NCBI GenBank assembly: GCA_003224995.1
Contig: QIAI01000073.1
Location: forward strand, 1,792 to 27,872
Length of the DNA: 26,081 nucleotides
Reading direction: 5' to 3'
From: Acidobacteriota bacterium
Lineage (GTDB): Bacteria > Acidobacteriota > Terriglobia > Terriglobales > Acidobacteriaceae
A program made the translations under genes and the position numbers. Below the pieces are notes generated by a model, which did no database searches, was not told the origin of the DNA, and saw nothing but the letters and a program-made list of their open reading frames with translations. Every line of letters starts with the position of its first letter. The stretch's first letter is position 1. Below are positions 3,092 to 13,334 of the stretch, one piece after another.

Positions 3092-3937
3092 ATGAGCACG
3101 ATCACGGTAAAAGACGGCACGACAATCTACTACAAAGACTGGGGCAAAGGCCCGGTGGTCACGTTTTCGCACGGATGGCCGCTGAATTCCGACGCATGGG
3201 ACGGACAAATGCTTTTCCTCGCACAGAATGGTTTTCGCGTGATTGCGCACGACCGGCGTGGCCACGGCCGGTCCAGCCAAGCATCGTCCGGGAACGACAT
3301 GAATGGGTACGCCGACGATCTGGCTGCTGTGATTGAGGCGCTGGATCTCAAGGATGCGACTCTGGTGGGACACTCCACGGGTGGAGGCGAAGTTGCGCGC
3401 TACATCGGACGTCACGGCACGAAGCGAGTTGCCGCGGCCATCCTGATCGCCGCTGTGCCGCCGATCCTGGTTAAGTCCGCATCCAACCCGGAGGGGCTCC
3501 CGATCGAGGTGTTTGACGGATTGCGAAGCGGTCTTGCCAAAGATCGCTCACAGTTCTACAAAGACTTTGCCGTAATGTTCTACGGCGCCAACCGGGCAGG
3601 TGCGAAGGTCTCGCAGGGAATGCTGGACCAGTTCTGGCTATGGAGCATGCAGGCCGGCCTCAAGAACTCCTACGACAGCATCAAGGCATTTTCCGAGACT
3701 GACTTCACCGAGGACCTCAAGAAATTCGATGTGCCAACACTGGTCATGCATGGTGAGGACGACCAGGTCGTGCCGATCAAGGATTCAGCGAAGAAATCGG
3801 CCAGGCTGATCAAGGGGGCGCAGGAAATTTACTATCCGGGCAGGCCGCACGGCCTCACCGCCACACACCAAGACGAGGTCAATACCGACCTGCTGAAATT
3901 TCTGAGGTCGGTCCAACAAGCTCGCAAGGCAGCCTGA
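3092..3937 (+). CDS. cpo: Non-heme chloroperoxidase / arylesterase-type alpha/beta hydrolase
   Basis: [29 protein letters not shown] nucleophile elbow, [12 protein letters not shown] catalytic His; SD AAGGAG upstream. Confidence 0.9.
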
Positions 3938-4023: not shown

Positions 4024-4779
4024 TTAACTGAACCGGCCGCTGTCCCGCACCTGGCGGGCCACCGATTCGAGAAAGTCGTCAATCGTCTCTCCGGGCTGAC
4101 GCTGCAAACCCGTCTTGGCCTTAATCCTCTCGGCAATCTGATTCGAGGCGGAGAAACGCACTACCGGATCGAGATCCCAGCGGCGGTGAAGATAAGTCTC
4201 GATCAGGACTAACTCTTCGGCGGAAACACGGGCCATCTGAGGGCTCGCGGAGGCTGTGGATTCAGTGGCGTTCCAGGCGGGCCTGACTTCGTCGGTAAGT
4301 TTCTCGTGTACCACGACAGTTCCCGCCACAAAGTCGCCGAGGCGGCGATTTTGCTTGTTCAGCATCATGCACGCCAGCCCCACACCGTAGATTCCTGGAA
4401 GGCCGTCAACCGCCCGTAGCAGGTTTCGTCCAATGGCTTCGAAGGCATCAATGGGGCGGCCCGTTTCCTTGATGACGCGAATCCCGGCATATCGCTTACC
4501 AGGCGTTTGCCCCTTCCAGATGATTTCGAAAAAAGCGAAGTATCCCCAATACACACAAAAGAGAAGGAGGACTGCGATGGCAGGACCCCACGACCAGGAA
4601 CGGAGGCTGAACAGCCCGCTGGCGAATGGAAGCGCGAAAACGAATACGAAAGCCCCTACTGTGTACAGGATACTTTGCAGTAAAGTATCGATACCGAGAG
4701 CGAGGAACCGGCTTCCGATTCCGGCCAACGGAAGTTCGAGGGCTATTTGCTCAGGAGTATCAATTTTTAACTCGTCCAT
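4024..4779 (-). CDS. RDD family membrane protein
   Basis: From ATG 4779: MDELKIDTPEQIALELPLAGIGSRFLALGIDT...YFAFFEIIWKGQTPGK...IRVI...RNLLRAVD...RRLGDFVAGTVVV. The upstream extension to 5016 overlaps the SpoIIM gene and is not protein-like. Confidence 0.9.
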   Translation of the reverse strand: MDELKIDTPEQIALELPLAGIGSRFLALGIDTLLQSILYTVGAFVFVFALPFASGLFSLRSWSWGPAIAVLLLFCVYWGYFAFFEIIWKGQTPGKRYAGIRVIKETGRPIDAFEAIGRNLLRAVDGLPGIYGVGLACMMLNKQNRRLGDFVAGTVVVHEKLTDEVRPAWNATESTASASPQMARVSAEELVLIETYLHRRWDLDPVVRFSASNQIAERIKAKTGLQRQPGETIDDFLESVARQVRDSGRFS

Positions 4780-4791
4780 CGAGTCACACCT

Positions 4792-5745
4792 ATGATCACA
4801 ACACGCTGGCTGCAGAAACGGAAGCCTCACTGGAGCAAACTGGAGGAGCTTCTGAATCTGACAAACCGCCAGGGTCTGAAAGCACTCTCGCGGTACGATC
4901 TGCAGGAATTGAGTCTGCTTTACCGTCAGACGGCAGCCGATTTGGCTGCGATCCGCGAGGATCCTGGCTCCGTACATTTCTCGCGCTATCTGAACCAGCT
5001 CCTGGCTCGGGCTCACAATACCATCTATTCGGGACAGCGGGCGAGCCCGCGTGGGTTACTATCGTTTTTCTGGGTAGATTACCCGCAGATCTTCCGCCGG
5101 AACCTGAGCCCCTGTGGCCTGGCGACGGCCATTTTTGTGCTCGGCGTTTTCGTGGGAGCGGCCTTGACTTACCAGGATCCGGATTTCAAGGTGAAGTTTT
5201 TGGGGCCGCAGATGGTCGAGACGATCGATCATCATAAAATGTGGACGCACTCCATCGTTGCCATTAAGCCGCTGGCCTCCAGTTCGATCATGACGAACAA
5301 CATCGGGGTGGGGTTCACCACCTTTGCTTTCGGTATCACCGGAGGAATTGGCACGGTCTACATGATGCTCTTCAACGGATTATTGATGGGCGTCATAGGA
5401 ATGGCGTGCCGGATTGCGGGGATGAGCCAGGATTTGTGGAGTTTCGTGGCGCCACATGGGGTGCTCGAGCTACCTGCCATTTTCATCGCGGGCGGTGCCG
5501 GATTCCGCGTCGCCCAAGGTTTGCTGTTTCCGGGAGTACTGCCCCGACGTGAATCGCTGGCAAAGGCTGGAGCGGAGGCGGTTCGCTTGCTGCTCGGGAC
5601 TGTTCCCATACTGATCGTGGCAGGGATCGTCGAAGCCTTTGTATCGCCTACCAGTCTGGCCGTCTCATTGAAGTTTTCGATGGCGGCGGCTTTGTTCACG
5701 CTCTTGTTGTTCTATCTGTTCCGTCCAGTCCAAGCGAATGTATAA
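4792..5745 (+). CDS. Stage II sporulation protein M (DUF95) family membrane protein
   Basis: W..LE.LL N-terminus, LYRQTAADLA, YLNQLLARAHNTIY, IMTNNIGV, FVAPHGVLELPAIFIAGGAG, AGIVEAFVSP; multiple TM segments. Confidence 0.9.
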   Translation: MITTRWLQKRKPHWSKLEELLNLTNRQGLKALSRYDLQELSLLYRQTAADLAAIREDPGSVHFSRYLNQLLARAHNTIYSGQRASPRGLLSFFWVDYPQIFRRNLSPCGLATAIFVLGVFVGAALTYQDPDFKVKFLGPQMVETIDHHKMWTHSIVAIKPLASSSIMTNNIGVGFTTFAFGITGGIGTVYMMLFNGLLMGVIGMACRIAGMSQDLWSFVAPHGVLELPAIFIAGGAGFRVAQGLLFPGVLPRRESLAKAGAEAVRLLLGTVPILIVAGIVEAFVSPTSLAVSLKFSMAAALFTLLLFYLFRPVQANV

Positions 5746-5747
5746 GT

Positions 5748-7127
5748 CTACAGGCGGTTGCGCGCTTTCACTTCAAGATAAGAGTTCACCAGCACAGAAG
5801 CCAGCGAAGCGGAACTCACTTCCAGGGCCAAAGCTCCTCGCTCCCGTAAGCGCGCAAGTAATAACTCACGGCGATGAATCATCTCCTGGGCGGCCGCAAT
5901 CTTGAACATCTGTTCCTCGTTCTCCGGTTGCCGCGAAGCCAGGTCGTCCAAGTCGGGCTGTCCGATGACGACGAACAAGACGAGGTGCCGCGGCATCATT
6001 TGCGATGCAGCTTCTATGACTTCAGGCGTCATGGCAGTCTCCGCTAAATCGGTCAGCCATACCACCAGGCTGCGACGTTTTTGATCCGTAAGGAGAAGTC
6101 CGGCAGTGCGCAAGTGGTCTGCTTCCGAGGCCTCTTCATGGATGGTCGACAACTGTTCGATCATTTGCCTGAGGTGCGTGCTGCCTCGTGCAGCCGGAAG
6201 GCGCTGCTGTAATTTTCTGCCGTAAGCCAGAAGTCCCACGCGGTCGCCAGAGTACAGGGCAACCTGCGCCAGGCTGAGTGCGGCATTCACGGCATAGTCA
6301 AGCTTGGTGAGGTCGCGAATGCGGGCACGCATCAGACGACCGGAGTCGATCACAATCCAGACGGTCTGGCTGCGTTCGACCTGGTAGATGCGGGTAACGA
6401 GTTTGCCGCGACGTGCCGCGGCCGTCCAGCAAATGTCGCGATATTCGTCCCCTTCGCGATATTCGCGGAGACTTTCGAACTCCCGGCCAATCCCGCGCAT
6501 GCGGGAATGGCGTTTTTCCATTTCGATCTGGCGGCTGCGTACCAGGAACGAAGATTGCTTTTTGGCTTCGTCCAGATTGGGATAAATCTGGACGCGCTGT
6601 TCCATGGACGCGCGAGCCCACCGCTCCGCGATCCGGAACGTGCCCTGATAGCGGAGGTAGATATCTGCCAGGGTTACCGCTCCCCGCTGCGTGGGCTGAA
6701 TCGTGTATTTTCGCGAAGCTTCGCCGTGGCCGGGGACGCTGATTTCGAGTTCGGGAGGTTCGGAACGCAGTTGTGCCGGGACGGAATCGAGAGCGAGAAC
6801 GTGCACGGTCGAAGCCGACTGGTTAACCAGAGTTAGTTCTACTTCCGAGGAAACCGACAGGGCCGGTGGGCTGTGCCAAATGCGTTGCACTTTAAGCTGT
6901 CTCGGCTTTGGCAACGTGAGGAGATCCACGGCCCACGCCAACAATGCCCCAAGATCCCAAGCCAGCATGGCGTAGACCCAGCGCAGTTCGAAAAAAGCCA
7001 GAGTAAGCCAAAGCAGACCAAGCAACAGAAGCAGAAAAAAGCGCGGGCCAAACGCAAAGCTGAAACGAGTATGGGACCGAGCCACGGCGGACTGGGTCGC
7101 CGGCACCAGGCCTTGCTGGCCACTCAC
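5748..7127 (-). CDS. DUF58 domain (VWA-like) protein, MoxR partner
   Basis: N-terminal TM pair, QIYPNL, GREFESLREYREGDEYRDICWTAAARRGKLVTRIYQVERSQ, VIDSGRLM; GTG start overlaps the MoxR TGA (GTGA). Confidence 0.9.
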   Translation of the reverse strand: MSGQQGLVPATQSAVARSHTRFSFAFGPRFFLLLLLGLLWLTLAFFELRWVYAMLAWDLGALLAWAVDLLTLPKPRQLKVQRIWHSPPALSVSSEVELTLVNQSASTVHVLALDSVPAQLRSEPPELEISVPGHGEASRKYTIQPTQRGAVTLADIYLRYQGTFRIAERWARASMEQRVQIYPNLDEAKKQSSFLVRSRQIEMEKRHSRMRGIGREFESLREYREGDEYRDICWTAAARRGKLVTRIYQVERSQTVWIVIDSGRLMRARIRDLTKLDYAVNAALSLAQVALYSGDRVGLLAYGRKLQQRLPAARGSTHLRQMIEQLSTIHEEASEADHLRTAGLLLTDQKRRSLVVWLTDLAETAMTPEVIEAASQMMPRHLVLFVVIGQPDLDDLASRQPENEEQMFKIAAAQEMIHRRELLLARLRERGALALEVSSASLASVLVNSYLEVKARNRL

Positions 7128-8071
7128 TTGGGCACCTCGACGGCGCGAATCACGTCCTGCAAAATCTGGTCAGGAGTGATTCCTTCGAGATCGGCCTCGG
7201 GGCGGAGCATGATGCGATGGCGGAAGGTCGGCGGCACGGAGGTCTTCACGTCATCCGGGATCAGGTAGTCTCGTCCCTCGATGGCGGCGACTGCCTTCGA
7301 GACCGCCATCAAGCTCACCGCGGCGCGCGGACTGGCGCCCAGCGAAAGGGACGGCCAATCCCTTGTCCGGCGAGCGATTTGGACAATGTATTGAAACAAA
7401 GATTCCTGAACGCTGATGGCGCGTATCTCACGCTGCGCTTGCGCCAGGAGTTCGGGGTCGACTGCCTGCAAGCCCAGGGCATCCAGATTGCCGGCGTCAA
7501 AGCCATTCTGCACATTGGTGAGTAAGCGAATTTCGTCTGCGGCTTCGGGATATGGAACGCTGATTTTCAGCAGGAACCGGTCGAGTTGAGCTTCCGGCAA
7601 GGGGTAGGTGCCCTCGAATTCCACCGGGTTCTGCGTGGCAAAGACAGTGAAAAATGAAGAAAGCTCGTAGCGGGTGCCGTCGATTGTAACCTGATGCTCT
7701 TCCATGCACTCGAGCAAAGCGGCCTGGGTGCGGGGAGGCATGCGGTTGACCTCGTCGACGAGAAACAAGTCGGTGAAAACCGGGCCCTGATGCAACTGGA
7801 AGGCGCTGGTGGCCATATTCAGGACGTTCGTACCGACGATATCGGCGGGCATCAGGTCGGATGTGCATTGCACCCGCCGGAACTGCAGGCGCACGAGCCG
7901 GGACAGAGTCTTGACCACGAGAGTCTTGGCAATTCCAGGAACTCCTTCGAGCAGCACATGTCCCTGGCAGAGGAGAGCGATCAGGCATTGAGTTTTCAAC
8001 TCTTCCTGGCCGACTACCACGCGAGCCATTTCGTCGCGGATGTGCTGCACCAGTTTTGGAACCGCTTCCAT
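7124..8071 (-). CDS. moxR: MoxR-family AAA+ ATPase
   Basis: HVLLEGVPGIAKT Walker A, DLMPADIVG, LVDEVNR Walker B, TQAALLECMEEHQVTIDG, ATQNPVEFEGTYPLPEAQLDRF, GASPRA. Confidence 0.95.
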   Translation of the reverse strand: MEAVPKLVQHIRDEMARVVVGQEELKTQCLIALLCQGHVLLEGVPGIAKTLVVKTLSRLVRLQFRRVQCTSDLMPADIVGTNVLNMATSAFQLHQGPVFTDLFLVDEVNRMPPRTQAALLECMEEHQVTIDGTRYELSSFFTVFATQNPVEFEGTYPLPEAQLDRFLLKISVPYPEAADEIRLLTNVQNGFDAGNLDALGLQAVDPELLAQAQREIRAISVQESLFQYIVQIARRTRDWPSLSLGASPRAAVSLMAVSKAVAAIEGRDYLIPDDVKTSVPPTFRHRIMLRPEADLEGITPDQILQDVIRAVEVPK

Positions 8072-9249
8072 CAGTCTTTCTCCTTGGAGTTGGTAAGCCG
8101 CGGAAACAATTTGAGCCGGGCTGCAAAATCGTGCAGTGCCCGAATCAGCGACAAGGCTTGCGCCGGTTTGAGATCGGTATGGTACCGCGCGGACTCACAT
8201 TCGCGCAGAGTCGCGGAGAAGCGCTCGTCCTTGAGAAGCGAACGCTGTCCCACGGCACGTTGCAAGTCATCGGCGGATGCGTTGCCGGCCATGCCCAGGC
8301 GCCGTGTCAGCCAGTAGCGAAAACGCTGGTATGCGATATCGACGGCGACCGATCCTGCCCCGGCGCGCTGGTAGAGTCCTCCGAGAGTCTGAACAAATTC
8401 GAGCGGGGAACGGCGCACATCGTGGATCGGCTGAAGAACAGGGCCGCTCCGTCGCGAGAAAGTGAGCAGTATAGCGGTAGCCAACAGAGTGCATTGCAGC
8501 ACCAGCCAGAGCAGAGGCGAGCGCACAAGCGATGCTCCCAATGTTTCCCGATATCCGTGGATGTATTCGTCCCACAGGACCTCGCGCCGGCTGTCGCCAA
8601 TGGAAGCAAGCAGGAACTCGAGGTTTCCCGGTTCGCGCAATCCTGCGTTCGTCAGAGGCGTGGCCGAAGCCCACCACATGACTTCACCCTTACCGAAAGC
8701 GTATTTCACCACCCGGACGTTGTCCTCATCTCCATACAACGGGGTTGCGCTATCGTCGCTCTGCCACCGAGCCTGGGGCGCTAATGTGATCTCCGGAGCC
8801 TGGCGCGTGATTGCGGAGGGGGAAAGAGGCCGCTCTTTCTTCCAAAGCATACCCTCGACGAAGTCGGGTAGGGAGGAGCCCGTGGGAAGAAAGGCGGTTG
8901 CGAACATTCCAGTTGCGATGACGTGCCCGCCGCCGGAAATAAATTTCTCCACTTGCTTCTTGTCTTGCCGGGTTGGAGCTTCTTCCGGGTCGGCCAGCAC
9001 CAGGGTCTTGCCGGCGGGATCGGGCAACTCGGCCAATGGTCTTTGCCAGCGACTCACCGGATTGCCGGACTCTTGCAGGAGCAGATAAGCAGCTTTCGCA
9101 CCCTCCGAGCCAGCCGAGTAGGTTGTCGGGACTTCAGCTTTCGAACCCGCTTTGCTCGCGAACAAGATCCCGCCGACGACCATAGCGCCAAAGATCACCG
9201 CCACGCCAATGAACAGCTTGCGGTCGGCGGCGCTCAGCCTCAGCGGCAT
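8071..9249 (-). CDS. DUF4350-like membrane-anchored extracytoplasmic protein
   Basis: Start ATG 9249 (MPLRLSAADRKLF) with GGAGAAG upstream; TM, PTTYSAGSEGAKAAYLLL, LTNAGL...GNLEF, LWDEYIHG, second TM, RRSGP, EFVQTLGGLYQRA; stop TGA coupled to the MoxR ATG (TGATG). Confidence 0.8.
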   Translation of the reverse strand: MPLRLSAADRKLFIGVAVIFGAMVVGGILFASKAGSKAEVPTTYSAGSEGAKAAYLLLQESGNPVSRWQRPLAELPDPAGKTLVLADPEEAPTRQDKKQVEKFISGGGHVIATGMFATAFLPTGSSLPDFVEGMLWKKERPLSPSAITRQAPEITLAPQARWQSDDSATPLYGDEDNVRVVKYAFGKGEVMWWASATPLTNAGLREPGNLEFLLASIGDSRREVLWDEYIHGYRETLGASLVRSPLLWLVLQCTLLATAILLTFSRRSGPVLQPIHDVRRSPLEFVQTLGGLYQRAGAGSVAVDIAYQRFRYWLTRRLGMAGNASADDLQRAVGQRSLLKDERFSATLRECESARYHTDLKPAQALSLIRALHDFAARLKLFPRLTNSKEKD

Positions 9250-10187
9250 CCTAGCTTCTCCAATTCTGCGAGTGTTTGCGAAAACGCCTGGGCATCCGCC
9301 GGCTGCCCGCCGTACCACACTAACTCGAACTTGCGGGTCAGGGCGGTGAGGGTGGGCCGGTGCTCGTTCGCAGAAGACATGAGGCGGAGATATTCGCGAG
9401 GCGTGCGAGCTGAATCGGGACGCCAGACTCCTTGCGATTCGAGCAGGGAGATCCCCGCCCAATACGCCAAGTGGATCGCGTCGCGCCAGTTTCCCCGCTG
9501 GGCGGCTTCGCGAGCCTCGGCGAGCCAAACGGTCCACTCACGCGCGGAGACAGGCAATGACTCCGGAAGAATGCTTTCTACTCTTGCGCTGTTTCGAATG
9601 CTCTTGAATACCCAATAGGACAATGCCAGAAAAGCGATGGCCATTAAGGCATAAACAAAGTATTTGCCAATGTTGGATACCATCGACGACGTGATCGCCC
9701 TACCAAGCAGCCGGATGAGGAACTGAACCAGGCGTTGCTTCAGTCGGTCGGACCAAGTGGGACCATGAATACTGCCAAATTCGGAGCGATCCAGAATGCG
9801 AGTAACCAGGGCACGCTGTTCAGAATCGTCATGCCGGTTTTCCTGGTATGCCTCGAGATCGGCGCGTTGACTCGCTAGACGATCACGGATTTTGCTTACC
9901 AGATCCCCGTCGTACTTCTTCTCCAATTGGCCCAGGTTGTTGCGCAGCCATTCGGTAGATACATCGAAGTTGCCGCGATCGGTGTGGACGCGCCAGGCAG
10001 ATGGCAGGCTGCTGACCAGTTCCGGGATTTGAGGTCCTGGCGTTTCGAGGTGTTCAGTCGCTGATAGAACCCGATCCAGGTCAGCCCGGTATTCGGCGGC
10101 GGTGAGGACCGCGCCGTTATCGATTCCGAGACATGGCGCGACAACGGCGAGGATGAACAGCAAGATGCCAACACGGCGTGCAGTCAT
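9240..10187 (-). CDS. DUF4129-like domain protein
   Basis: Signal/TM N-terminus, central TM, C-terminal AREAAQRGNWRDAIHLAY...RTPREYL...LTRKFELVWYGG. Confidence 0.8.
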   Translation of the reverse strand: MTARRVGILLFILAVVAPCLGIDNGAVLTAAEYRADLDRVLSATEHLETPGPQIPELVSSLPSAWRVHTDRGNFDVSTEWLRNNLGQLEKKYDGDLVSKIRDRLASQRADLEAYQENRHDDSEQRALVTRILDRSEFGSIHGPTWSDRLKQRLVQFLIRLLGRAITSSMVSNIGKYFVYALMAIAFLALSYWVFKSIRNSARVESILPESLPVSAREWTVWLAEAREAAQRGNWRDAIHLAYWAGISLLESQGVWRPDSARTPREYLRLMSSANEHRPTLTALTRKFELVWYGGQPADAQAFSQTLAELEKLGCR

Positions 10188-10193
10188 GCGAAC

Positions 10194-11006
10194 CTAGGTG
10201 GCGTGAGCCAGCCCGGGCTGCGTTCCATCCAGCGTTTCCATCATGTGGTGAAGATCGAATGCCTCTTTGCGCACGCGCTGATCATAGTACAAAAGTGAGA
10301 ACCCGATGGTTGCTAAGGGGCCGACAAGACATTGTGAAATGAAACTGGCAATTGCGGATGCTACCTGGATTCCTGCCGAGTTGACGGCCTTTGCTCCCAA
10401 CATTCCGGCGACCAGACCGATCGGCCATTCAATCAGAAAAGCCACAACAATGCTTAGCACGATGAACATGACCCAGATGACAAAAATCCGCCACCGGCTA
10501 CCTTTTGTGAGTTCCGAGCTACGGGAAACCGAATCGTTGATGCCACGATCTTCGAGGATGGCAACGGGAACCGCCAGCGACCACATCAGGGCAAGGATGA
10601 TACCGGGTATGACCAGCAAGACAAACCCCAAACCTACGCCCAGTCCTACCACAATGGTGAGGAGCGCCACCCTTACAATGCGACCTTTCACGCGAGAATA
10701 AGCGTCGCTCACGCTAGTGGGCCGACCCAAATGTAATTGCGAGACCGCGACCACGGTCGCAGCCTGCGAGGCTGCTGCCACCATCAGAGAGACAAGCGCG
10801 AATACCAGCCCCCACAAAGCCGCACCGAATGCTGCGGACAACCCGGTTTGCGACCGCAAGGAGATACTCGAGAGTTGCACTGCCAGGGAAATCAGCCTGG
10901 GAAGGGCGACGATCCCGACAAAAAGAGCAAAATTGTCTTTGTATAGAGAGAAGGTGCGATCGAGTAATTCACCAGTTGTTAAAGGACGGAGTGGCGCAGT
11001 AGTCAT
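10194..11006 (-). CDS. Polytopic membrane protein (GDPD-membrane-anchor-like), copy A
   Basis: MTTAPLRPLTTGELLDRTFSLY...VLVIPGIILALMWSLAVPVAILED...SRSSELTKGSRWRIF...LLYYDQRVRKEAFDL; about 6 TM segments. Confidence 0.85.
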   Translation of the reverse strand: MTTAPLRPLTTGELLDRTFSLYKDNFALFVGIVALPRLISLAVQLSSISLRSQTGLSAAFGAALWGLVFALVSLMVAAASQAATVVAVSQLHLGRPTSVSDAYSRVKGRIVRVALLTIVVGLGVGLGFVLLVIPGIILALMWSLAVPVAILEDRGINDSVSRSSELTKGSRWRIFVIWVMFIVLSIVVAFLIEWPIGLVAGMLGAKAVNSAGIQVASAIASFISQCLVGPLATIGFSLLYYDQRVRKEAFDLHHMMETLDGTQPGLAHAT

Positions 11007-11044
11007 GAAGACTTCGCCTCAACATAAGACTAAGAACACGCAGG

Positions 11045-11056
11045 ATACTAGCACAG
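11045..11056 (-). promoter_or_regulatory. Extended -10 promoter (TGTGCTAGTAT) for copy A and the MoxR operon
   Basis: TGn+TAGTAT 38 nt before ATG 11006; identical 12-mer upstream of copy B. Confidence 0.6.
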
Positions 11057-11161
11057 AAACATCGCTCCAGCTTTAGGGAAACAGCGAGAAATAAAGTCTA
11101 TCGATGAAACTATGTCACTCCAGGTATGAAAGAAAGTCGACAAAGATGACTCCTTTTGGAG

Positions 11162-11980
11162 TTAAGTCAACACGCTCGACGGTTGCGCACTGCTGGATGC
11201 CATACTATCAAGGGCGTCCATCATGTATTGAAGATCGAAAGCTTCTTTCCGTACGCGCAAGTCGTAGTACAGAAGTGAAAAGGCGATTGTGGCCAGCGGT
11301 CCCGCCAGGCATGCGGATATAAACTTCAGGAGCGTAGATGCTGCATTCAGCCAGGGGAAAAGATACCGTGCATGGTGAGTGATAGCTGAGGCCGTCGCGA
11401 TTTGGACGGGCCACTGAAACAAAAGGGTCATAGAGAGGGAAAGAGCAAAGAATAAGATCCAAATGACAAATACTCGCCAGCGGTAACCTTTCGTCAAAGA
11501 TGCACTGCGGGACATGGAGTCTATGATCCCCTGGTCCTCAAGGACGGCGACCGGCACTACCAGGGACCATTTCAAGGCCAGCAGAATTCCGGGAACGACA
11601 AAGAAAAATGCGCCGAGTCCCGCGCCCATCGCGACCAGCAGGCTGAGGAGTATGACGCCAACGATGTTGAATTGCACTTTCGAATAGGCATCGATGACGC
11701 CCGTGGTACGGTCAAGGTAGATTTCGGACACGGCCATGACAGTGGCCGCATGTGCAACCGCGCCGACAAGCACCGAAATCAATGCTCCGAGCCAAACCCA
11801 GCCCAAAAAATTCAGCCCCAAATAGATGCGCAGAGGATTGGCAAATAGTCCAAGAGCAAATGAGAAGAGATGGGGCAAAGCCGTAATTCCGAAGAACAGA
11901 CCAAAGTGCTCCCGGTAAAGGGCGAAGGTCCGATCCAGCAGCTCACCGGTGGTCAAGGGACGCAGGGGGCCAGTCGTCAC
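11162..11980 (-). CDS. Polytopic membrane protein, copy B (tandem paralog of 10194-11006)
   Basis: GTG start; MTTGPLRPLTTGELLDRTFALY...VVPGILLALKWSLVVPVAVLED...SRSASLTKGYRWRVF...LLYYDLRVRKEAFDL. Confidence 0.85.
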   Translation of the reverse strand: MTTGPLRPLTTGELLDRTFALYREHFGLFFGITALPHLFSFALGLFANPLRIYLGLNFLGWVWLGALISVLVGAVAHAATVMAVSEIYLDRTTGVIDAYSKVQFNIVGVILLSLLVAMGAGLGAFFFVVPGILLALKWSLVVPVAVLEDQGIIDSMSRSASLTKGYRWRVFVIWILFFALSLSMTLLFQWPVQIATASAITHHARYLFPWLNAASTLLKFISACLAGPLATIAFSLLYYDLRVRKEAFDLQYMMDALDSMASSSAQPSSVLT

Positions 11981-12597: not shown

Positions 12598-13334
12598 ATG
12601 CTCATAGAAGTCGGCCATGTGGAGGCGATCTTCCGTTATCCCGTGAAGTCCATGAGTGGCGAAAGGCTAGAGGCCGCCAACCTTGGCTGGTATGGGCTGG
12701 AGGGTGACAGACGTCTGGCGTTCCGGCGGCTGGACAACCGCAGCGGAATGCCCTGGCTGACAGCAAGCAAGCTTCCCGACCTGCTCTTGTTTGCTCCGCA
12801 AGACGGGGCTCCGGGAGAAGTTCCCTCGCAGATTCGCACGCCGGATGGCGAAGACATGCCTGTGTTCGGGGAGGACTTGGCCGCGGAGATCGGGCGTCGG
12901 TACGGGGCTCCCGTGCAGATGATGCAGTTGAATCATGGCATCTTCGATGAAGCGAGCATCTCCGTGATCGCATCCGATACGGTGCGCGAGATCGGAAGAC
13001 TCGCGGGGCTGAGTCTCGACGTGCGACGATTTCGTCCGAACATACTGGTCCGTTTACAGCGACCGGTTCCCTTCCACGAGGACGAGTGGGTAGTCGGTGT
13101 GCTCTCATTCGGGGAGGGAGACGACGCCCCTCTGTTGCCGTCACTATGCGCGACCTCCGCTGCTCGATGGTGAATCTTGATCCCGAGTCAGCCGAGCCAG
13201 CGACAGAAGTGATGAAGACGATTGTTGGCGCGAACCAGAACCACGCGGGAATTTACGGCACAGTCACTCGCATCGGCCGACTTGCGGTCGGACAGACCAT
13301 ACTCTTCCGTGCAGCGAACCGTGAACGTGCGTGA
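12598..13334 (+). pseudogene. MOSC domain protein (YcbX/mARC-like), frameshifted near 13127-13131
   Basis: IFRYPVKSMSGE, GDRR, RRFRPNILV in frame 1; the C-terminal MOSC half (VAVTMRDLRCSMVNLDP...GIYGTVTRIGRLAVGQ) follows in the -1 frame right after EGDDAP. Confidence 0.85.

Follow-up and report, generated by a model that had tools for sequence, protein, structure and literature searches.

A conserved MoxR-DUF58 membrane module from a soil acidobacterium and the predicted contact between its DUF58 and DUF4350 proteins

We analysed a stretch of 26,081 nucleotides (the window) from a soil Terriglobales (Acidobacteriota), in which eight genes at 4024-11980 encode a MoxR-type AAA+ ATPase, a DUF58 protein with a VWA domain, a DUF4350 protein, a DUF4129 protein, two related polytopic membrane proteins (memA and memB), a SpoIIM/DUF95-family protein and an RDD-family protein. 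Together they make up one copy of a MoxR-DUF58 membrane module that is conserved and looks self-contained. Judged by its sequence, the DUF58 protein has exchanged the metal-ion-dependent adhesion site (MIDAS) of its VWA domain for a different conserved motif, and a complex model predicts that the cytoplasmic part of DUF58 sits on the conserved cytoplasmic tail of the DUF4350 protein. Our leading, though tentative, reading is that the module is an ATP-driven inner-membrane remodelling or assembly complex, which would act on DUF4350 via DUF58, and a role in envelope or membrane homeostasis is likely.

Layout and conservation of the module

A first-pass annotation, made from the sequence alone, had named a family for each gene and described the cluster as complete. 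Pfam assigned every one of the eight products to the family so named, and a hydropathy scan found transmembrane segments in all products but MoxR, as the annotation had also held. The junctions had been read correctly as well, as a check of the gene limits showed: memB and DUF4129 are separated by a 6-nucleotide (nt) gap, DUF4129 and DUF4350 overlap by 10 nt, the DUF4350/MoxR junction reads TGATG and the MoxR/DUF58 junction reads GTGA. SpoIIM lies on the opposite strand, where it is convergent with DUF58, the stop codons being 2 nt apart (5745-5748), and head-to-head with RDD, the divergent start codons being 12 nt apart (4779-4792).

Within the Acidobacteriota we compared 99 loci, 20 drawn from a sample of the phylum and 79 retrieved by means of a DUF4350 alignment, with open reading frames (ORFs) called stop-to-stop. 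By far the commonest pattern has mem, DUF4129, DUF4350, MoxR and DUF58 in one direction, followed by SpoIIM in reverse and RDD in the first direction again. At least 58 of the 99 loci are clean full copies of this pattern, so the arrangement is not due to chance; most of the others are truncated contigs or contain ORFs split by the stop-to-stop calling. The full order is kept in a homologous locus whose DUF4350 is just 33% identical, in which DUF58 and SpoIIM overlap tail-to-tail, and in three loci from other acidobacterial families SpoIIM and RDD run in the same direction as the remaining genes. The DUF4350 family (PF14258) matches 156 of 201 sampled Acidobacteriota genomes, a tally that takes in one unpublished genome (G024), on which none of the specific claims depends, and is an upper bound because PF14258 also hits GldG-like proteins.

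Loci from other lineages were found by a tblastn search of plasmid and chromid records with DUF58, which gave four annotated or readable loci; a tblastn search of plasmid records with DUF4350 gave no match. On Rhizobium leguminosarum pRL23b5, two 'hypothetical' genes, MoxR, DUF58, SpoIIM and RDD run in one direction throughout, and the hypothetical products have sub-threshold matches to DUF4129 (E 5.8e-4) and DUF4350 (E 7.7e-7). The order in Catenovulum adriaticum is RDD, SpoIIM, a 515-aa protein, DUF4350, MoxR and DUF58, and a candidate mem-DUF4129 fusion has one weak hidden Markov model hit (E 3.4e-5), without Pfam support. Nocardia farcinica has DUF4129, MoxR and DUF58, then RDD flipped and SpoIIM forward, and DUF4350 was not detected at this locus. 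The Prevotella locus comprises a flipped RDD, SpoIIM, weak mem and DUF4129 hits, DUF4350, MoxR and DUF58.

Comparison of these loci indicates that the set of six families (DUF4129, DUF4350, MoxR, DUF58, SpoIIM and RDD), complete in the window, is present for the most part or entirely in the four other lineages, with some matches weak or missing. DUF4129-DUF4350-MoxR-DUF58 form a core whose order is kept in Acidobacteriota, Rhizobium and Prevotella; in Catenovulum, DUF4350-MoxR-DUF58 at least are preserved. SpoIIM and RDD change position together or flip, and they are often head-to-head, in Nocardia and Prevotella as well. The genes on either side are different in each lineage examined, which makes the module look self-contained. 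A cross-phylum neighbourhood comparison had been proposed with the first-pass annotation; the genes do co-occur in Acidobacteriota, Rhizobium, Catenovulum, Nocardia and Prevotella, and the cluster is as widespread as had been supposed. Ranging over Acidobacteriota, Pseudomonadota, Actinomycetota (including the tuberculosis bacillus) and Bacteroidota, the module ranks among the more widespread bacterial gene modules without an assigned function.

A parallel with Mycobacterium tuberculosis Rv3689-Rv3695 (moxR2), in both order and strand flip, had been drawn in the annotation and agrees with a published table that lists Rv3689, Rv3691 (DUF4350), Rv3692 (MoxR; moxR2), Rv3693 (DUF58), Rv3694c (SpoIIM) and Rv3695 (RDD), with the strand flip (PMC8191103). 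These genes and their M. chelonae / M. abscessus orthologues (MAB_0386c-0392c) encode the same families, that is, membrane protein, DUF4350, MoxR, DUF58, SpoIIM and RDD. As in the window, one gene of the SpoIIM/RDD pair is on the opposite strand, and the mycobacterial genes are co-regulated as a block, dropping jointly by 6-8 log2 units in one experiment (PMC8191103). The window differs from the mycobacterial locus in belonging to another phylum and in the duplication of its lead membrane gene, and from the Nocardia locus in that the latter has RDD flipped rather than SpoIIM.

Part of the gene association is also in print for archaea. Makarova et al. 2015 (PMC5898192) described arCOG01314 (DUF4350) together with a COG0714 MoxR ATPase and a vWA protein, and noted that SpoIIM homologues adjoin a vWA protein and a COG0714 ATPase and, in non-sporeformers, need another job. 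The archaeal neighbourhood shares with the window the DUF4350-MoxR-vWA trio, the predicted topology and a flavodoxin/GATase1-like fold of the DUF4350 ectodomain. It adds S-layer and Ig-like membrane proteins, whereas the bacterial version has DUF4129, SpoIIM, RDD and YciC-like proteins; none of the eight window products matched PF07760 (COG4743, the S-layer/Ig-like partner) in the Pfam scan. Since this association had been published, the description of the cluster as the best candidate for an undescribed system was too strong. The window adds no new kind of system and is an ordinary complete copy of a widespread cluster. The accompanying remark that the novelty lies in the function of the cluster and not in its existence holds for the literature searched, in which no published function was found, and nothing that gives the cluster a function emerged among solved structures, curated functional families, defence-system models or papers.

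The MoxR ATPase, the DUF58 site and the DUF4350 tail

The MoxR ATPase (7124-8071, minus strand, 315 aa) is cytoplasmic and matches AAA_3 with 202.2 bits and AAA_lid_2 with 72.5 bits. It has the makeup of an MRP-like MoxR protein, with a full AAA_3 profile that includes Walker A and B and with a C-terminal AAA lid. Both Walker motifs are intact (GVPGIAKT and LVDEVNR), as they are in all aligned homologues from the four other lineages. Separately, in one acidobacterial genome (L052, G057:C4:882578-882971) an in-frame TGA splits the cluster MoxR into 114 aa and 223 aa, which may reflect a pseudogene or a sequencing error.

The ATPase also has a weak Pfam match to bpMoxR (30.4 bits, against 202 for AAA_3), which would fit a biological-conflict or phage-defence system of the MoxR-vWA ternary type. 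We consider such a system highly improbable, given that none of the eight proteins matched PADLOC, that Pfam found no beta-propeller, effector or toxin domain, and that the cluster is stable in most acidobacterial genomes rather than patchy.

DUF58 (5748-7127, minus strand, 459 aa) consists of an N-terminal transmembrane hairpin followed by a cytoplasmic region, in which the DUF58 signature region (PF01882, 99.8 bits) precedes a VWA fold (VWA_2, PF13519, 37.8 bits). Positive residues flank the hairpin, so the VWA domain should face the cytoplasm, as MoxR does. A canonical MIDAS comprises DxSxS with a later Thr and Asp, whereas the window DUF58 reads DSGRL at residues 261-265 (6333-6347, minus strand), just where the first-pass annotation had placed this departure. 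The non-canonical site is real and conserved across lineages. Among 94 acidobacterial orthologues it follows the pattern D-[SACT]-G-R-L-[ML], and in an alignment of 24 acidobacterial DUF58 orthologues, down to 25% identity, D261 and R264 are invariant and G263 is nearly so. Elsewhere it reads DSGRL in Rhizobium, DSGKR in Catenovulum, DSGRV in Nocardia and DKGRV in Prevotella, and the positions of the later MIDAS Thr and third Asp are unconserved across lineages.

In contrast, Bat-type DUF58 paralogues from the same phylum retain DxSxSM (DFSSSM, DGSESM and DTSGSM). On this sequence evidence the cluster DUF58 is a distinct subfamily, with D-x-G-[R/K]-x-M in every lineage examined, in which the MIDAS has been replaced and has not decayed. 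Because the MIDAS serines have given way to a conserved Gly and Arg/Lys, classical metal-mediated ligand binding by this VWA domain would not be expected, which suggests that the site binds a ligand without metal in the classical sense. We also considered the GRxLL motif of the NorQD paper as an explanation of DxGRL and discarded it, as GRxLL lies in the helix-2 insert of the ATPase and does not belong to the VWA domain.

The replaced site bears on a comparison with better-studied pairs. NorQ-NorD, CbbQ-CbbO and RavA-ViaA likewise consist of a MoxR-class AAA+ ATPase encoded beside a VWA partner, and they are the likely template for the engagement of DUF58 by MoxR. Cofactor insertion is the best-documented job of MoxR-VWA pairs (PMC13036017, PMC9976466), and the module could by analogy be a cofactor-insertion chaperone for a particular enzyme, like NorQ-NorD, CoxD-CoxE and CbbQ-CbbO. 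We judge this improbable, since the MIDAS, at which such proteins are proposed to act on their targets, is replaced throughout the cluster DUF58 subfamily, and since no client enzyme is conserved beside the cluster, whose neighbours vary in every lineage examined. VWA proteins of the NorQ-NorD type are soluble, keep the MIDAS and have a known client, whereas the window DUF58 is membrane-anchored, carries DxGRxM and has no known client.

Two further known arrangements, the Bat-type MoxR-DUF58-BatA-E operons and Pseudomonas aeruginosa PA2875-PA2874-tgpA, which is co-transcribed (PMC3507681), also have MoxR, then DUF58, then membrane proteins. The window differs from the Bat operons in that Pfam found neither a further VWA protein, of the BatA/BatB type, nor a TPR match in any of the eight products, in addition to the DxSxSM motif of the Bat-type paralogues. 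TgpA-type proteins carry a DUF4129 domain at their end, according to the Pfam family description; DUF4129 is present in the window, but no window product has a transglutaminase match in Pfam. A SigF-regulated MoxR/DUF58 operon of M. smegmatis could not be tied to this type of cluster and was not used.

The DUF4350 protein (8071-9249, minus strand, 392 aa; Pfam DUF4350, 65.3 bits, E 1.1e-17) was modelled with AlphaFold2 at a mean predicted local distance difference test (pLDDT) of 89.4. The model comprises a membrane helix, an alpha/beta domain, a second membrane helix and a five-helix cytoplasmic bundle. The alpha/beta domain is periplasmic and GATase1/GldG-like, and Foldseek likened it to STM3548 and to the domain of trimerisation type, without catalytic function, in GH42/GH164 glycosidases (E ~1e-4), which agrees with the GldG/flavodoxin-like assignment in PMC5898192. 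No GATase1 nucleophile-elbow residue is conserved in DUF4350. Across 56 diverse homologues (30-52% identity) the juxtamembrane tail holds much of the strongest conservation (R266, R267, G269, P270, R279, E284, F285, L292 and Y293), with E284 invariant, and the tail carries the conserved motif SRRxGP...R-SPLEF-x-TLG-x-LY.

A second strongly conserved motif of this protein, VLWDEYxHG (residues 224-232, 8554-8580), is periplasmic and lies just before the second membrane helix. Its W226, D227 and E228 are nearly invariant in the same 56 homologues and its H231 is invariant among the closer ones; the motif is a candidate that could form a metal or ligand site.

Three chains were modelled together, each with its own alignment, namely the DUF4350 tail (265-392), the DUF4129 tail (196-315) and DUF58 (80-459), and the complex was scored with the cytoplasmic part of DUF58 as the partner. 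The result was of the class 'supports binding', with ipSAE values of 0.65, 0.62 and 0.67 in three runs, against 0.01 for the best of three controls; when the DUF4350 tail was swapped for an unrelated protein, ipSAE was 0.00. In calibration, solved complexes reached this mark in 58 of 80 cases and mismatched pairs in 2 of 110, figures that are rough here given the custom alignments and three chains. The confident interface joins DUF4350 281-312 and 362-386 to DUF58 268, 363-364 and 389-438, and it includes conserved residues on both sides (F285, Y293 and A365 of DUF4350, helix 412-420 of DUF58). Complex modelling had been put forward as a check with the first-pass annotation; of the partners modelled, the DUF4350 tail is predicted to contact DUF58, and the DUF4129 tail stays outside that interface.

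A possible mechanism and its alternatives

In solved NorQ-NorD complexes, a VWA finger lies in the pore and the VWA C-terminus contacts the MoxR ring, and ATP-driven rotation stretches a linker and remodels a membrane-bound client (PMC13036017). We propose that the module could act along similar lines. By analogy with such solved MoxR-VWA pairs, the MoxR hexamer would engage the VWA domain of DUF58, and the membrane-tethered DUF58 would in turn grip the cytoplasmic tail of DUF4350, as predicted by the complex model. ATP hydrolysis would then pull or twist this tail. The outcome may be that a membrane complex is assembled, disassembled or quality-controlled, or that the GldG-like periplasmic domain of DUF4350 changes state from inside the cell.

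We favour an ATP-driven machine because of the families and their tight junctions, the conserved order, the occurrence in other phyla, the intact Walker motifs, the predicted contact and the NorQD analogy. The first-pass annotation had offered both an ATP-driven membrane-protein machine and a trans-envelope complex. The former is still the best reading and gains support from the model of DUF58 on the DUF4350 tail, whereas the term 'trans-envelope' is unsupported, since every component looks inner-membrane-anchored and the cluster has no outer-membrane partner.

Several observations count against an ATP-driven complex acting on DUF4350. The cluster has no conserved substrate, enzyme or outer-membrane partner next to it, and the DUF58-DUF4350 contact takes the form of a model confidence score. 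The DUF4129 tail, which is highly conserved too, lies outside the confident interface with DUF58, although this is no evidence against its binding. A salt bridge between Arg264 in the replaced site of DUF58 and Glu284 of DUF4350 was unsupported, as residues 389-438 make up most of the DUF58 side of the interface and the contacts named do not include Glu284. Finally, literature searches found no functional study of the cluster.

A more elaborate form of the ATP-driven machine would work on the envelope from the inside out. Here the AAA+ ring, acting through a metal-free VWA adaptor on a bitopic tail, would switch the GldG-like domain together with an assembly of the SpoIIM, RDD and YciC-like proteins and so control export or envelope remodelling. 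We regard this version as rather unlikely.

For the archaeal association of DUF4350 with COG0714 and vWA proteins, a novel secretion or membrane-remodelling complex was predicted (PMC5898192). Applied to the window, dedicated secretion or export would make DUF4350 a periplasmic auxiliary and the YciC-like, SpoIIM and RDD proteins a conduit, which MoxR-DUF58 would assemble or gate. The periplasmic fold of DUF4350 fits the description in that study, and the Catenovulum homologue has a weak ABC_transp_aux match. However, in this diderm the cluster is not accompanied by any conserved cargo gene, signal-bearing neighbour or outer-membrane component, the archaeal S-layer and Ig-like partners are absent among the window products in Pfam, and the membrane domain of SpoIIM showed no transporter-like fold in fold searches. 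Secretion is thus an unlikely function.

Both DUF4350 and DUF4129 link a periplasmic domain by a single transmembrane segment to a conserved cytoplasmic tail, an architecture that would also suit a transmembrane sensor, in which the periplasmic domains sense an envelope signal and MoxR-DUF58 converts it to a cytoplasmic response. MoxR-vWA pairs do signal in the Esr pathway (bioRxiv 10.64898/2026.09.08.750141). A sensor is nonetheless quite unlikely here, as Pfam found no kinase, FHA protein, transcription factor or other output domain in the cluster and as conservation in DUF4350 is lower in the periplasmic part than in the tail.

With regard to the ATP-driven complex that we favour, the additions made by the window are modest, namely a diagnostic D-x-G-R/K-x-M signature of the cluster DUF58 and the predicted interface between DUF58 and the DUF4350 tail. 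They make the question of function more testable, and the predicted contact of the DUF58 C-terminal helices with the DUF4350 tail can be probed by point mutants in tractable hosts.

Accessory membrane proteins, gene limits and source

The two mem proteins are tandem paralogues that share 55% identity. MemA (11162-11980, minus strand, 272 aa) is a polytopic, YciC/UPF0259/GPDPase_memb-like membrane protein, with Pfam matches to GPDPase_memb (E 2.5e-6) and UPF0259 and with five hydrophobic segments in the hydropathy scan. MemB (10194-11006, minus strand, 270 aa) is a polytopic protein of the same family, matching GPDPase_memb (E 1.5e-8) and DUF7544 (E 3.2e-7), and NCBIfam gave weak YciC matches for the mem proteins. 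Most acidobacterial loci have a single mem gene before DUF4129, and memB is the copy found in nearly all related loci. Two or three copies occur in at least 6 of the 99 loci only, so the duplication appears to be lineage-specific.

The DUF4129 protein (9240-10187, minus strand, 315 aa; Pfam DUF4129, residues 241-308, 45.8 bits, E 6.2e-12) has an N-terminal transmembrane or signal segment, about 150 aa outside, a second transmembrane segment at 176-194 and a cytoplasmic helical DUF4129 domain with a conserved ARTPREYL motif. A protein-atlas look-up returned its own family alone. The idea that DUF4129 is a general docking domain for MoxR-DUF58 found no support: among the TgpA-sized DUF4129 proteins outside the cluster, from four acidobacterial genomes, one of four adjoins a DUF58 match and none of four adjoins a strong MoxR match. 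A short pattern in common, resembling [ST]-P-x-E-[FY], together with a weak Pfam match for the tail of RDD (E 0.046), had suggested that DUF4350 and RDD carry DUF4129-like tails; we rejected this, as profile-profile comparison of all pairs of tails gave less than 5% probability.

SpoIIM (4792-5745, plus strand, 317 aa; PF01944, 128.4 bits, E 3.2e-37) is a SpoIIM/DUF95-family polytopic membrane protein that begins with a cytoplasmic three-helix bundle. Its AlphaFold2 model (pLDDT 87.8) was matched by Foldseek to a model of Bacillus subtilis SpoIIM (E 3.4e-3, template modelling score by hit 0.60) and to models of the archaeal MJ0793/MJ0706, and the window protein shares the SpoIIM fold with SpoIIM of the sporulation DMP engulfment complex. 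In a fold search the membrane part matched no solved membrane fold, and the match that was obtained covers the generic N-terminal three-helix bundle only, with Z below the meaningful level for helical proteins. Among the 70 acidobacterial loci with an antisense SpoIIM, 36 show a tail-to-tail overlap of 4 to 23 nt between DUF58 and SpoIIM. Transcripts around the antisense SpoIIM would be expected to overlap.

The RDD protein (4024-4779, minus strand, 251 aa; RDD, 83.5 bits, E 2.2e-23) is a membrane protein with a cytoplasmic tail of about 90 aa. Its start was placed at Met80 of an ORF running to 5016; ortholog conservation begins at IDTPEQ, and AGGTG lies upstream. The start of DUF4350 was likewise placed within a long ORF, at Met97. 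No functional model in NCBIfam matched any accessory protein, and sequence searches of the PDB with DUF58, DUF4350, DUF4129, SpoIIM and RDD returned nothing meaningful.

The genes that flank the module, an alpha/beta hydrolase (3092-3937, plus strand) and a MOSC-domain protein (12598-13173, plus strand), are on the other strand and outside the conserved module. The source genome is metagenome-assembled, 69% complete and in 725 contigs, the window being part of contig 60. Near relatives of the window DUF4350 protein occur in genomes of Terriglobales and Candidatus Sulfotelmatobacter from soil. The window DNA is present in soil metagenomes of at least 15 studies and in no RNA run. One other Terriglobales locus (L059:18562-19434) seems to contain most of the cluster a second time, inverted and less than 20 kb away, with many split ORF hits in both orientations; either a true duplication or an error of assembly could explain this.

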